DNA of 64,000 bases from an archaeon. GTDB taxonomy: Archaea; EX4484-52; WAPT01. The stretch is taken from assembly GCA_029258795.1 (NCBI GenBank), contig JAPDKB010000002.1, positions 96,001 through 160,000 of the forward strand. The letters are read 5' to 3'. Below the pieces are notes generated by a model. It was given only the letters and a program-made list of their open reading frames with translations. It ran no database searches and was not told the DNA's origin. A program made the translations under genes and the position numbers. Shown one piece after another: positions 6,806 to 30,342 of this stretch (its first letter is position 1; each line of letters begins with the position of its first letter).

Positions 6806-6929
6806 CCCGCCGTAGCTTAGTCTGGTAGAGCGCTCGGCTGTAGGTCTGTGCCGCGTGGTATGGCGCAGCCACGCAGCCAGTTGCTCAGAAACCGAGAGGT
6901 CCCCGGTTCGAATCCGGGCGGCGGGACCA
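6806..6929 (+). tRNA. tRNA-Tyr(GUA) with 47-nt intron at about 37/38 (6844-6890), CCA encoded
   Basis: Acceptor CCCGCCG/CGGCGGG (C1-G72, typical of archaeal Tyr), anticodon stem CTCGG/CCGAG, GTA at 6840-6842, GGTTCGAATCC T-arm. Confidence 0.95.
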
Positions 6930-10670: not shown

Positions 10671-10794
10671 TGGAGCCCCGGCCGGGATTTTCATGGAAGA
10701 TTACTCGACCCTTAAAGCGGCGTCGAGCAGCCATTTTGAACCCGGGACCTCTTCCTTACCAGGGAAGCGCTCCACCAGGCTGAGCTACCGGGGC
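10671..10794 (-). tRNA. tRNA-Thr(GGU) with 47-nt intron in the T-loop (59/60; 10688-10734), CCA encoded
   Basis: GCCCCGG/CCGGGGC acceptor, CTTCC-CT-GGT-AA-GGAAG anticodon arm; strict BHB (TTCA/TGAA central helix, AAA and AAT bulges). Confidence 0.93.
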
Positions 10795-25363: not shown

Positions 25364-26473
25364 TCAGTGTCTGATTATCTCTATACCCAGTGCCTCGCCC
25401 AAGCTCTTTTTCTCAAGCTCTTCAGCGGTTTCTGAAGGCCCGAGCACATACGGGCTCTTTACACCGGTTATGATGGTTATCACTCTTATCTTTCCATCCA
25501 TACCAGGGTCAATTCTTGCACCCCAGATGGTCTGAGCGTTTGCATCCAGATGTTTCTGCACATACGTTCCTATTTCGTTTATCTCGCTGAGCTTGAGGTC
25601 TTTTCCACCAGATATGTGTATCAGAGCTCCATTTGCTCCAGTGTAATCCACATCAAGTAACGGATTTTCAAGCGCTCTCTCGACAGCTTCCCTTGCTCTT
25701 GACGCGGATGAACTCTCTCCGATACCTATCATTGCCACGCCTCCAACGCTCATCACGGCTTTCACATCAGCGAAATCCAGATTGACGAGGGATGGCTGAG
25801 ATATGGTTTCCGTTATACCTTTTATCATTGTCACGATAATTTCATCCGCAACAGCAAACGCCTGATCAAGCGACATCTCTCCTGCTATATCCAGCAGGCG
25901 GTCGTTTTCTATCACAATTACGGTGTCTGTAACTTTTCTCAGGTTAACAAGCCCTTCTTCCGCCTTGTGGATTCTCGCACCCTCTATCCTGAAGGGCATT
26001 GTAACAACACCAATCACTATAGCTCCTTGACTTTTTGCAATCTCAGCCACAACCGGAGCTGCTCCTGTTCCGGTACCGCCACCCATACCTGCTACCACGA
26101 AAACCATGTCCACTCCACGTAGAACATCTTTAATTTCGTTAATGGACTCTTCAGCCGCTTTTTTACCAACATCAGGATATCCCCCCGCTCCAAGCCCCCT
26201 CGTAACCTCTTGTCCGAGGAGTATCTTCCTATCCGCTTTAATCATTTTGAGGTGTTTCGCGTCGGTGTTCATGGCTATCGTTTCTGCTCCTATAATTCCG
26301 ATTGTACTTAGCCGATTAATGGCATTACATCCCATGCCTCCTATCCCCACCACTGCAATTCTGGCCTCCTGTGGTGTCTCAAATTCAGGATTTTCGTCCT
26401 GATAATAGATAGGTACCGCATCTTTATTCATTTGCCTTTCGATTGCCTTCTGAATAATTGACTCCATCTTCAA
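25364..26473 (-). CDS. ftsZ: Cell division protein FtsZ
   Basis: GIGGMGCNA, NTDAKHL, GMGGGTGTG tubulin signature, NLDFAD. Confidence 0.97.
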   Translation of the reverse strand: MKMESIIQKAIERQMNKDAVPIYYQDENPEFETPQEARIAVVGIGGMGCNAINRLSTIGIIGAETIAMNTDAKHLKMIKADRKILLGQEVTRGLGAGGYPDVGKKAAEESINEIKDVLRGVDMVFVVAGMGGGTGTGAAPVVAEIAKSQGAIVIGVVTMPFRIEGARIHKAEEGLVNLRKVTDTVIVIENDRLLDIAGEMSLDQAFAVADEIIVTMIKGITETISQPSLVNLDFADVKAVMSVGGVAMIGIGESSSASRAREAVERALENPLLDVDYTGANGALIHISGGKDLKLSEINEIGTYVQKHLDANAQTIWGARIDPGMDGKIRVITIITGVKSPYVLGPSETAEELEKKSLGEALGIEIIRH

Positions 26474-26920: not shown

Positions 26921-27937
26921 ATGCAGTGTAAAGACGTAATTCCACCACACGGCCATGGCCTGATGACCAACAATCGACTTATCTTCATCATGTGGGGCAG
27001 GGTGCTGTTCGGCAATGATCCGTTGTATGTTCTGAAGTATGTACCATCCAAAGGGTCAGGAGAAGATGTTCGAATTTTTAATGGTATGCGTTATCTGAAG
27101 GTGAGATCACCCATTTACGGCTACAGCAACATGATCGAAGTTCTCACGAGTGTTTGTCCAAAATATGTCGGCCAATCCCCATATTTTACTAGGAGGGTTG
27201 TTTGCATTCCGGAAGAGGACATCTCCCGCATTTTCTCGCCCGTCGAGATTGCAGAAAAAATAATCTCTGATCCTCAGGACCCGGTGGAAGAAAAATTTGT
27301 AGATTACTGCGAGTTTTTTAGAGAGCAGATTGGAGGGGGTGTAGGATTCGGCATCACTGCTTCACTTATGTTCGGAATGCACACCACCAAATCTGACATA
27401 GATCTGATAATTTACAGCCAAAACCCGCAGCAGGTCCAGCTGAAAATTTTTGAACTGATTGAAGAAGGGATGGTGTGCACAGCTCTCAGAGAAAACGAAA
27501 AGGAGAAGAGAATCGTTGAGAACGTGTTTCAGCAGAAGGTGGATGAAAGTTTCATAAAATGGCTTGTGGAGCAAAGAAGATATTACGGCTCATTGAGACA
27601 TCCGGAGATTGGTGTGGAGTGCCACCTCATGCTCCTGTCCAAGCAAACTAAGGTGATTGAACACAAGCCATGTGAAGTTAGACGCGTATGCGTTGAGGGA
27701 GAGGTGGTGAATGCTGATGAGACCTGCTTATCCGCGCCTGAATTTGAAATAAGGTGTGGGAATGAAACTTTCTGGGTGGTGTGCTATCACAGAGGTGGAG
27801 AGCTTGTGAAAACAGGTGATAGAGTTTCATTAGCGGGAGACATGATGAAATTTTCTGATGGCTCAGCATTAATAGCTCTCGTGGACTGGAACGATGACTG
27901 GCTCAGGATTTTGAGAACTGAGCAAAGCTTGCGCTGA
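26921..27937 (+). CDS. Predicted nucleotidyltransferase (COG1665-like)
   Basis: YVLKYVPS N-terminal motif, GITASLMFG...SDIDLIIY pol-beta-type motif, C-terminal OB-like region. Confidence 0.7.
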   Translation: MQCKDVIPPHGHGLMTNNRLIFIMWGRVLFGNDPLYVLKYVPSKGSGEDVRIFNGMRYLKVRSPIYGYSNMIEVLTSVCPKYVGQSPYFTRRVVCIPEEDISRIFSPVEIAEKIISDPQDPVEEKFVDYCEFFREQIGGGVGFGITASLMFGMHTTKSDIDLIIYSQNPQQVQLKIFELIEEGMVCTALRENEKEKRIVENVFQQKVDESFIKWLVEQRRYYGSLRHPEIGVECHLMLLSKQTKVIEHKPCEVRRVCVEGEVVNADETCLSAPEFEIRCGNETFWVVCYHRGGELVKTGDRVSLAGDMMKFSDGSALIALVDWNDDWLRILRTEQSLR

Positions 27938-28012
27938 GCTTCGGAAAAGAACCCTATGAAATTTTTTAAAATTACCTGCCATACTATACTCACGTTGTTA
28001 TCGTGTTTTCAC

Positions 28013-28172
28013 GGTCCCGTAGCTCAGCTGGTTGGAGCGCCGGTCTTATATGACCGCGGGAGCTAAAAATAACGGCTGTTGCTCCCGTGTCTAGGCCAGC
28101 CGGAGGTCGGGGGTTCGAAAGCCATCTAGAGAAACTGGAAAGAGAATATGGCAGAAAATCCCCCCGGGACCA
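28013..28172 (+). tRNA. tRNA-Ile(UAU) with two introns (37/38: 28051-28097; T-loop 59/60: 28120-28158)
   Basis: GGTCCCG/CGGGACC acceptor, A73, anticodon TAT 28047-28049, BHB-like motifs at both introns, GGGGG/CCCCC T-stem; no encoded CCA. Confidence 0.88.
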
Positions 28173-28213
28173 TCCTTATTCTGCCCGCATTGATATCCTA
28201 AGATTCTTAAAAT

Positions 28214-29287
28214 TTGGAGTATTATACTCACTATATGATAGTTACAGATGATGCGAAAGTATTGAAAGTTGAGGGGCACCAGCGGCATGGATATTTGATC
28301 GTTGGTGCTAAAATTTCTCCCGATATGAAGAAATACTTGGAAACGAAAGGAGAGGCAGGATACAAACCGGCTGTCAGCTTCTCTTTAAGAAGCAAGCTGG
28401 CCAGATGCGGTGCTGATGCTCGGCTATCGGGGTGGGAAATTCATGAGGACCTTCTCATGGGCAAACTGGAATATATCAATAGGGGATTGCCAATTGAATA
28501 TCGTCCGGGAGATGAGATAGGGAGGTTCTTCGGATACCATCAGAAGGAAGCTTTGAGAGGGCAAGAACTGTATGATATGGTACGTAAATGGACTCCGCAA
28601 GAGAGTGTCAGAATGAATCCTGAGGAATGGAACGAGTTTAGGGATTCCACAATAGCGCTGGAACTCCAACCCTACAAGGTATATGAGGTTAGGAAATCAA
28701 AAGAACCAGTGAGAGCACCATATATAATCGATAGCAACGAGCTTTATCTGAAGATTAAGGAAGTAACGCCAGAAGAGGTCGTTGAGGAGCTGCCTTTCGA
28801 ATCAAAAGAGCGGATGTTATCGCAGATGATGGAGGATAAGTCCCTTAAGGACACACTGTTCTGGGAGTGGCTTGCCATACAGCTATCCAAGAATGGCTTC
28901 TGTGTTGTGGAAAGCGTGGCTGAGATCGAGATTCCCGAAGGACATTATGGTCTGATACCAAGAAGGACTTCACTCTGGGGCAGCACCAATCAAGCATCTT
29001 CAGTCATAGTTGATCCTGCTCCCAAGTTTCAGGGCAAGCTACTCTATGAGATCGTTTCGGGCACGCCGGGAGAGCATCTCTCTCCAAAACGCTACGGATA
29101 CCTGCGCATCTATCCAGATACGCTCTCCCACACAGAAGAGCGCTACAGACCGGAAAAGCCGGAGAAGATGGAAACAAGGAGGGAAAGGAAGGAGAGAATG
29201 ACGACCATCTCCACAGGCGTGGCAGCATGTCCATGGCGTGGAAGATGTGAGGAGGAATCAGTTGAGGAAATTCTGGGAATGATATAG
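28214..29287 (+). CDS. Divergent two-domain dCTP deaminase/dUTPase-fold protein
   Basis: LRSKLARCG in the N-terminal half; GFCVVESVAEIEIPEGHYG and IVDPAPKFQGKLLYEI in the C-terminal half. Confidence 0.55.
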   Translation: MEYYTHYMIVTDDAKVLKVEGHQRHGYLIVGAKISPDMKKYLETKGEAGYKPAVSFSLRSKLARCGADARLSGWEIHEDLLMGKLEYINRGLPIEYRPGDEIGRFFGYHQKEALRGQELYDMVRKWTPQESVRMNPEEWNEFRDSTIALELQPYKVYEVRKSKEPVRAPYIIDSNELYLKIKEVTPEEVVEELPFESKERMLSQMMEDKSLKDTLFWEWLAIQLSKNGFCVVESVAEIEIPEGHYGLIPRRTSLWGSTNQASSVIVDPAPKFQGKLLYEIVSGTPGEHLSPKRYGYLRIYPDTLSHTEERYRPEKPEKMETRRERKERMTTISTGVAACPWRGRCEEESVEEILGMI

Positions 29288-29331: not shown

Positions 29332-30342
29332 ATGGTTGATGATGGAGGCATCATTATTAAGGAAGAGGTGTTCGAGGAAGCTTATATACCATCCCGAATG
29401 CTTCACCGGGAGGGGCAAATTCGGGAAGTGGCGAGATGTCTTGAGCCGGTGGTGGAAGGAAGAAGAGCGCTCAACCTGTTTCTTTATGGTCCGCCGGGCA
29501 CGGGTAAAACCACCCTTGTGAAATACATGTTCGATGATCTCTCATCAAGAAGCATGAAGTTCAAGCCGATCTACATAAACTGCTGGGAGCGCAACAGCAA
29601 GCATGCTGTAGCATCGGCATTGCTGAGCAGCGTTGACCCTCTGGCTCCACTCAAGAGAACTCCGGCTGAATTGCTTGAGGACTTTCTCGGGAGTGTGGAG
29701 AGAAAGGAGTACAACGTTGTTGTGTGTCTGGACGAGGTGGACAGAATGGAGGATAAGGACATGCTCTATGATCTCTCTCGAGCCGGGATAGGGCTTGTGC
29801 TCGTCTCCAACGATCCCTACGCGCTCGTTGACCTTGACCCGCGCATAAAGAGCTCCCTCTTTCTCAACTTCGTGGAATTCCCGAAGTACAGGCCGGACGA
29901 GCTCGTTGACATTCTTAAGGACAGGGCTGAAATCGGACTGAGACCGGGAGCCATAGAGCCCCATTTGCTGCGGGTCATAGCTGTGAGTGCTGAAGGGGAT
30001 GCACGGGTTGCCATAGCCACGCTGAGGAACGCTGCCAAGCTTGCTGAAAGCAGAGGAGCAAGCAAGATAGAAAAGGATGATGTGATGCAGTCCGTTAAGG
30101 CAGCCAGAAAGCTCAAGGTGCAGCAGATATTAAGCACGCTGAATGAAGAAATGCGGCTCCTTTATTCAATTGTGGAGGAGCACGGCGAGATAAGCTCAGC
30201 GGAGCTTTACCAGATTTACAGGGAGCGCAGCAAGAAGCCGGTGGCTGAGAGAACCTACCGAAATTACATGGACAGGCTGGTTGAGCTGAAGCTTGTGAAA
30301 GCTGAGGGAGATGTGAGGTGGAGGAGGTATAAGGTAGTGTGA
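29332..30342 (+). CDS. cdc6: Orc1/Cdc6 replication initiator
   Basis: YIPSRMLHRE, GPPGTGKT, YINC, LDEVD, GDARVAI, C-terminal wHTH. Confidence 0.93.
   Translation: MVDDGGIIIKEEVFEEAYIPSRMLHREGQIREVARCLEPVVEGRRALNLFLYGPPGTGKTTLVKYMFDDLSSRSMKFKPIYINCWERNSKHAVASALLSSVDPLAPLKRTPAELLEDFLGSVERKEYNVVVCLDEVDRMEDKDMLYDLSRAGIGLVLVSNDPYALVDLDPRIKSSLFLNFVEFPKYRPDELVDILKDRAEIGLRPGAIEPHLLRVIAVSAEGDARVAIATLRNAAKLAESRGASKIEKDDVMQSVKAARKLKVQQILSTLNEEMRLLYSIVEEHGEISSAELYQIYRERSKKPVAERTYRNYMDRLVELKLVKAEGDVRWRRYKVV

Follow-up and report, generated by a model that had tools for sequence, protein, structure and literature searches.

In the archaea ARMAN-2, ARMAN-4 and ARMAN-5, a tRNA-Ile with the anticodon UAU is found, and these organisms are reported to have neither a tRNA-Ile(CAU) nor TiaS (Fujishima et al., 2011, PMC3239211). 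Two further tRNA-Ile(UAU) cases named in the literature are Nanoarchaeum equitans and Korarchaeum cryptofilum (PMC6000648; 10.1101/614032; PMC3895270). In addition, the ARMAN-2 precursor of tRNA-Ile(UAU), which contains a 25-nt intron with a strict motif at position 37/38, has been spliced in vitro, and the same genome also contains introns with relaxed motifs at position 59/60 (PMC3239211). The present analysis concerns a gene at positions 28013-28172 (+) of a 64,000-nt stretch of archaeal DNA (the window; G000:C2:96001-160000, from an assembly of 1.17 Mb in 23 contigs that is 96.3% complete). It is a genuine tRNA gene with three exons and two bulge-helix-bulge (BHB) introns, as an earlier note made from the letters of this DNA had observed, and it is very probably a single-copy, functional tRNA-Ile(UAU) gene, which supplies the AUA-reading tRNA of a DPANN archaeon. 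In this role, the tRNA-Ile(UAU) would stand in for the usual archaeal pair of tRNA-Ile2(CAU) and TiaS (agmatidine), which was not found across the lineage.

The ARMAN organisms (Micrarchaeota/Parvarchaeota, DPANN) and the present archaeon are alike in the UAU tRNA, in the lack of a detected tRNA-Ile(CAU) or TiaS and in the strict 37/38 intron. Relaxed 59/60 introns are likewise found in both genomes, those of ARMAN being located in other tRNAs and those described here also in the tRNA-Ile(UAU) gene itself. The two cases differ in the length of the canonical intron (47 nt here versus 25 nt), in their affiliation, since the present genome belongs to another phylum-level group and comes from a hydrothermal vent metagenome, and in the splicing endonuclease, which is a three-unit epsilon2 enzyme in ARMAN, whereas a single alpha-like gene, coding for 197 amino acids, was found here. 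The likeness to Nanoarchaeum and Korarchaeum, where the molecule is termed 'tRNA-Ile3', lies in the replacement of tRNA-Ile2(CAU) by a genome-encoded UAU anticodon (PMC6000648; 10.1101/614032). The Korarchaeum gene shares with the present gene the presence of an intron and the resemblance to the organism's own tRNA-Ile(GAU), but it contains one intron rather than two, and Korarchaeum is not a DPANN archaeon. Because this mode of decoding has already been published for ARMAN, Nanoarchaeum and Korarchaeum, the gene is a further instance of a known mechanism; particular to it are the second (T-loop) intron, the lineage and the frequency with which AUA is used. It adds a DPANN lineage to the archaea that swapped TiaS and agmatidine for a UAU tRNA, for which the literature mostly names two or three organisms, and no DPANN-wide statement on AUA decoding by a UAU tRNA without TiaS was found in the literature searched. 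The earlier note had called the UAU anticodon rare, with reference to Nanoarchaeum equitans and Korarchaeum; both of these cases are indeed published, but the trait is not confined to them, as illustrated by ARMAN (PMC3239211) and by the sample of DPANN-labelled genomes described below.

When the exons were joined by their coordinates (Table 1), ARAGORN returned a 74-nt cloverleaf that was called as tRNA-Ile(tat) with discriminator A, in agreement with the two BHB introns at 37/38 and 59/60 and the anticodon loop CU-UAU-AA that had been claimed from the letters. The cloverleaf contains a 7-bp acceptor stem, a D arm, a 5-bp anticodon stem, a 7-nt anticodon loop with U33 and a purine at position 37, and a T arm with a TTCRA loop. 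CCA is not encoded, the bases that follow exon 3 being TCC. When intron 2 alone was deleted, ARAGORN called this tRNA again, now with an intron of 47 nt in its anticodon loop, and it reported no tRNA when intron 1 alone was deleted. The mature sequence is identical to the tRNA-Ile(GAU) of the same genome at 63 of 75 positions, with A73, and, as read by eye, 6 of the 7 acceptor-stem positions match; identity to the elongator tRNA-Met amounts to 58 of 74 positions. Upstream of the gene, an A/T-rich run (~27963-27975) and a TATA-like element (~27983-27991) can be read from the sequence, and a TATA-like element is located at a comparable distance upstream in two loci of the same genus (L001 and L006).

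Table 1. Exons, introns and other features of the tRNA-Ile(UAU) gene, with coordinates given as positions in the window.
Feature	Position	Strand	Content or basis
Exon 1	28013..28050	+	acceptor 5' strand, D arm, anticodon stem 5' strand, loop positions 32-37
Anticodon T-A-T (UAU), positions 34-36	28047..28049	+	ARAGORN cloverleaf; loop CU-UAU-AA
Intron 1, 47 nt, canonical 37/38	28051..28097	+	strict hBHBh', motif score 4,4,3
Exon 2	28098..28119	+	position 38, anticodon stem 3' strand, variable region, T stem 5' strand, T loop 54-59
Intron 2, 39 nt, T-loop 59/60	28120..28158	+	relaxed BHB, motif score 3,4,3
Exon 3	28159..28172	+	T loop position 60, T stem 3' strand, acceptor 3' strand, discriminator A73
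Putative promoter region, A/T-rich TATA-like boxes	27958..27995	+	sequence only

At the first intron, the central helix is formed by CUUA (positions 32-35) and the UAGG that precedes the last two intron bases (4/4 pairs), with bulges that consist of U36, A37 and the first intron base on one side and of the last two intron bases and A38 on the other. The outer helix of this motif is the anticodon stem itself (4/4 pairs), and the inner helix comprises 3 bp plus 7 bp (3/3 scored). The second intron has an otherwise similar geometry, built around the T stem as outer helix (4/4 scored) and with GCCAU/AUGGC as inner helix, and its central helix contains 3 of 4 pairs, the fourth being a G57.A mismatch. 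Owing to a run of A, a cut placed one or two bases further left than 59/60 would leave the product unchanged. The minimum-free-energy fold of the precursor includes the acceptor and T stems as well as the hairpin of intron 2 but lacks the anticodon BHB, an outcome to which no weight was given; little weight was given to the finding that the precursor folds better than 200 of 200 shuffled sequences (z = -3.2).

The pattern of conservation within the genus speaks against a chance resemblance to a tRNA. In L001 and L006, the same-genus loci that were reached via FtsZ (~90% identical in that protein), the exons are identical to those of the window at 74/74 positions (38/38 in exon 1), while identity amounts to 68-69% in intron 1, 51-56% in intron 2 and 55-62% in the flanks. 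Relative to these genus relatives, the intron helices show compensatory changes, including changes in the inner helix of intron 1. Furthermore, a contig (X2) from a DNA run of a different study spans positions 27900-28173 and departs from the window by nine base differences and at four indel sites, all of which fall in the two introns or in the upstream flank. Its exons are the same, with T at position 28047, the anticodon base at which, by the earlier note, a C in read data would have counted against the UAU reading.

The role of the gene as the only AUA decoder was assessed through an intron-aware tRNA inventory of the genome. Genome-wide, 1,551,303 BHB-like candidate introns were listed, of which 307,073 better ones were deleted singly and 400,623 pairs were deleted together, and each product was run through ARAGORN with canonical introns allowed. 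The inventory recovers the tRNA-Ile(tat) at 28013-28172, as well as many genes that are missed or weakly scored by plain ARAGORN or Infernal. Aware of one or two introns, it yielded no third CAU tRNA in G000; the two CAU tRNAs that were found are the initiator and the elongator tRNA-Met. The initiator (C2:46756-46833) is characterised, by eye, by A1:U72 and by three G-C pairs at the base of the anticodon stem. The elongator (C2:176574-176773 (-), locus L108) contains two introns, one of 74 nt at 37/38 and one of 49 nt in the T loop, and has an acceptor stem unlike those of the Ile tRNAs. In the 74-nt intron of this elongator gene, motifs resembling C and D boxes are also present; this intron matches sR11, a family of archaeal C/D-box small RNAs, at 23.9 bits (E 0.031), below the gathering score of 39, and may encode a methylation guide.

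One further tRNA-like gene (G000:C3:58968-59096 (+), L107), in which acceptor stem, D arm and T arm are all intact, has a 9-bp helix around 54 nt in the place of the anticodon arm. Searches of five relatives returned no orthologue of this gene but T-arm matches only. It was considered as a CAU tRNA on account of the string CTCATT and was rejected, as a T is found where the purine at position 37 belongs.

The TiaS_FLD domain (PF08489) and the TiaS_TCKD domain (PF22641) each gave 0 matches in G000, with all 4 archaeal control genomes positive in both cases, and PF08489 gave 0 matches across the 42 genomes of the phylum-level group, which comprises one order and eight families (f1-f8). Neither tiaS nor a tRNA-Ile(CAU) was found in the 96.3%-complete assembly, which, as far as these searches reach, upholds the earlier suggestion that this lineage may have dispensed with TiaS. 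The alternative of a lysidine route was rejected because the genome contains no TilS domain (PF09179, 0 matches; 12 of 14 controls positive, 3 above the cut-off). AUA is used heavily, with 9718 occurrences among the 20117 Ile codons (48%) of 653 long non-overlapping open reading frames (ORFs), or 35 per 1000 codons, and is the commonest Ile codon. The meaning of the codon was examined with FtsZ, by taking the residues that are aligned to its 21 AUA codons in 80 relatives and counting only the non-AUA codons of these relatives. The AUA positions align with I in 47% and V in 23% of cases, compared with I in 48% for AUU and 48% for AUC and with M in 61% for AUG, and, judged by this alignment, AUA means isoleucine in G000.

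A pattern comprising the D arm and the 5' half of the anticodon arm, taken from exon 1 of the tRNA-Ile(UAU) gene, gave exactly one match in 23 of 41 group genomes (families f1, f2, f3 and f6) and, when reversed as a control, none. Twenty-two of these 23 loci resolve as tRNA-Ile(tat), each with an intron at 37/38 (45-100 nt long), and the remaining one is truncated by the end of its contig. The acceptor stems of the tRNA-Ile(UAU) genes covary between families. The extra T-loop intron occurs only in the genus genomes G000, G001 and G002 and is missing in the f2, f3 and f6 genes for tRNA-Ile(UAU). Families f4, f5, f7 and f8 gave no match with this pattern. With a looser pattern, a one-intron tRNA-Ile(UAU) gene was confirmed in G008 (f7), the same 15-mer as in the looser-pattern matches was found in G014, and no tRNA-Ile(UAU) gene was resolved in G005 (f4) or G006 (f5). 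Family f8 was missed by the D-arm pattern because the orthologue in G009 (L168:1250-1570 (-)), recognised by eye, contains three introns, located in the D loop, at 37/38 and in the T loop.

Beyond the group, 20 further genomes were reached via named loci, four of which proved to be from the same group by identical contig coordinates, leaving 16. TiaS_FLD was not found in 15 of these 16, the exception being a 3.4-Mb genome labelled Methanobacteriota, and the UAU 5'-exon pattern is present in 11 of the 16, the TiaS-positive genome not being among them. Eight of the 11 loci contain a 37/38 intron, one is doubtful (L131), two have no one-intron solution (L118 and L125), and none is intron-less. 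Within this small sample, a UAU tRNA without TiaS looks like the rule among DPANN-labelled genomes, where it would be routine. The 37/38 intron is regarded as old and common to the group, and the 59/60 intron as one of the T-loop introns that have recently spread genome-wide in the genus. The labels given by NCBI to the FtsZ relatives include Nanobdellati, Nanohaloarchaea/Nanohalarchaeota and Aenigmatarchaeota among others, and the DNA run that contains the stretch (X1) is labelled a hydrothermal vent metagenome. Unlike X2, X1 may be where the window itself came from and does not count as independent.

A pathway from gene to decoding can be proposed in which a primary transcript, initiated from the A/T-rich upstream region, would carry two protein-spliced introns, both of which would be cleaved at their BHB motifs by the archaeal splicing endonuclease. 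The three exons would then be joined by RtcB, and, as the gene lacks an encoded CCA, post-transcriptional addition of these bases is proposed. The mature 74-nt tRNA would be charged by IleRS, and its U34 would pair with the A of AUA. Genes for the two processing enzymes are found in the genome: an alpha-like splicing endonuclease with PF01974 and PF02778 domains (G000:C6:35295-35888 (+); L104:1216-1809), and an RtcB ligase (G000:C3:134423-135718, E 2e-175). The endonuclease gene lies 37 nt downstream of a tRNA-Phe gene.

It could be argued that the locus merely resembles a tRNA by chance or represents a pseudogene in decay, with AUA read otherwise, given that standard tools are silent on it and that the motif of intron 2 is imperfect, but this is extremely improbable, for the exons are kept at 74/74 positions while the introns drift, the cloverleaf is perfect, orthologues with compensating acceptor-stem changes are found in at least six families, and the inventory of G000 produced no other decoder for what is its commonest Ile codon. 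A functional gene with other splice junctions, and hence with an anticodon other than UAU, deserves no more credence: although the junctions are predicted and the exact 59/60 cut can be set in more than one way within one or two bases, with the same product, the 37/38 cuts are fixed by the strict hBHBh' motif, other cuts break the 7-nt loop or the stem, and the differing introns of the relatives (45-100 nt) all yield the loop CUUAUAA. Several points nevertheless count against the interpretation of the gene as a functional and sole AUA decoder. The central helix of intron 2 is imperfect at 59/60, with its G57.A mismatch, and small alpha-type endonucleases prefer strict motifs. A second endonuclease subunit was not detected in G000, though several of its introns have imperfect motifs, and may have been missed by the search. 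The tRNA-like gene at C3:58968-59096 yielded no convincing anticodon arm in deletions of one or two introns, ARAGORN structures or Rfam searches. At 96.3% completeness the absence of TiaS from G000 is not absolute, and the inventory is blind to genes with three or more introns, to genes with two weak-motif non-canonical introns and to split tRNAs. In addition, haloarchaeal Ile tRNAs mutated to U34 gain cnm5U in vivo, bind AUG and slow growth (PMC3895270), so that some safeguard against misreading is needed.

The case therefore raises an experimentally testable question, namely what stops an archaeal isoleucine tRNA with U34 from reading AUG. The best guess is that the elongator tRNA-Met, which is cognate through its C34, would outcompete tRNA-Ile(UAU) at AUG, with or without a modification of U34. 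A precedent for the unmodified state is provided by Mycoplasma mobile, where a U34 that is left unmodified is reported to read AUA and not to misread AUG to a significant extent (PMC3895270). In this organism and in other bacteria without TilS, as in the present archaeon, a UAU tRNA compensates for the loss of a C34-modifying enzyme (PMC3575796; PMC3895270), although the Mycoplasma mobile system is bacterial, its gene is intron-less and the lost enzyme is TilS and not TiaS. Alternatively, U34 could bear an Elp3-type xm5U (of the cm5U, ncm5U or cnm5U family) and AUA would be read along with some reading of AUG or AUU. This is possible but not likely: the genome does encode an Elp3 homologue (521 aa, with ELP3_N, radical SAM and GNAT domains), and the cnm5U acquired by the haloarchaeal U34 mutants is consistent with it, but the binding of AUG by these same tRNAs and the accompanying slow growth would be costly at a usage of 35 AUA per 1000 codons, and the literature searched contained no modification data for DPANN tRNAs.

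A refinement of the competition model, which does not supplant it, would assign the 37/38 intron a part in maturation of the anticodon. With U34 and A35 held in the anticodon-intron helix, U34 (and perhaps U36) would be modified, for example to pseudouridine, or Elp3 would be kept off, and the tRNA would become AUA-specific. Every resolved tRNA-Ile(UAU) gene contains the intron (22 of 23 group loci, 8 of 11 outside the group, G008 and, by eye, G009), compared with only 7 of 26 resolved tRNA-Ile(GAU) genes in the same group, a contrast that is suggestive but weak as evidence, and an Elp3 homologue is encoded. In yeast, moreover, the intron of tRNA-Ile(UAU) is required for the Pus1-dependent formation of pseudouridine at positions 34 and 36, and without the intron part of the tRNA receives Elp-dependent ncm5U34 (PMC6582322). 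The eukaryotic cytoplasmic tRNA-Ile(UAU), whose intron is obligatory, and the present one share the UAU anticodon, an intron at 37/38 with bases that pair with the anticodon, and a cellular enzyme of the Elp3 type, but yeast needs Pus1, and the TruA/Pus1-family domain (PF01416) gave 0 matches and 0 first-look candidates in G000, with 13 of 14 control genomes positive. Pus1-type pseudouridylation was dropped as the leading idea after the search for this domain gave no match. Furthermore, the intron ends show ordinary BHB pairing only, U34 being paired, wobble-paired or mismatched depending on the family, and the counts of 37/38 introns come from related, non-independent genomes. On balance, a role of the intron in anticodon maturation is rather improbable here. 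The more general proposition, that TiaS-less archaea keep the 37/38 intron since the anticodon-intron helix sets the state of U34, by modification or by exclusion of Elp3 and with an enzyme outside the Pus1/TruA family, is a long shot; if true, it would constitute an archaeal counterpart of the eukaryotic intron-dependent PsiAPsi anticodon and would explain how the commonest Ile codon is read without misreading of AUG.

The gene is also easily overlooked, as the earlier note had anticipated for annotation tools. Default ARAGORN reports 0 tRNAs in the whole window, and the unspliced gene does not match the Rfam tRNA model (RF00005) at its gathering score, which it misses because of its two introns; in E-value mode, a partial match of 16.1 bits is obtained, compared with a cut-off of 29, that covers model positions 7-64 only. 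The decoder of AUA, which makes up ~3.5% of all codons, is one single-copy gene unseen by default tRNA finders, and because of this invisibility automatic annotation would leave the genome seemingly without a means of reading AUA. Two other tRNA genes of the window are likewise not called by default ARAGORN, a tRNA-Tyr(GTA) at 6806-6926 (+) with a 47-nt canonical intron and a tRNA-Thr(GGT) at 10671-10794 (-) with a 47-nt T-loop intron.

T-loop introns are abundant in this genome, with 28 candidates at 59/60, one of them doubtful, and because of this number the 59/60 intron is considered a genome-wide habit rather than a feature specific to tRNA-Ile(UAU). Many of these introns share a common sequence frame, starting with TGCTGCGGAG and ending with CCGCAGCTGAAAA, which suggests one intron family that spread between tRNA genes. 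Intron 2 of the tRNA-Ile(UAU) gene does not closely match the other T-loop introns of G000, the best agreement being 27 of 42 aligned positions. Multi-intron tRNA genes with non-canonical BHB introns are found in the Thermoproteales. The likeness to these genes lies in the several BHB introns per gene and in the favoured position 59/60, with nothing that is specific to tRNA-Ile(UAU). D-loop introns, each about 50 nt long, were recognised by eye in two tRNA-Arg genes of G000, tRNA-Arg(CCT) at C3:79312-79436 (+) and tRNA-Arg(TCT) at C5:23285-23410 (-), and look closely related to each other.

The tRNA-Ile(UAU) gene is situated in a 276-nt gap between two ORFs (26921-27937 and 28214-29287), neither of which has a Pfam match. 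This region is flanked by the genes for FtsZ (25364-26473, -), two genes upstream of the tRNA, and for a Cdc6/Orc1-type AAA+ protein (29332-30342, +). Elsewhere in the assembly, contigs C10, C12 and C17 have a G+C content of 28-31%, compared with ~44% in the remainder, and the 9.3-kb contig C11, which carries a bacterial-style tandem of intron-less tRNAs for Thr, Gly, Tyr and Thr, is probably a contaminant.

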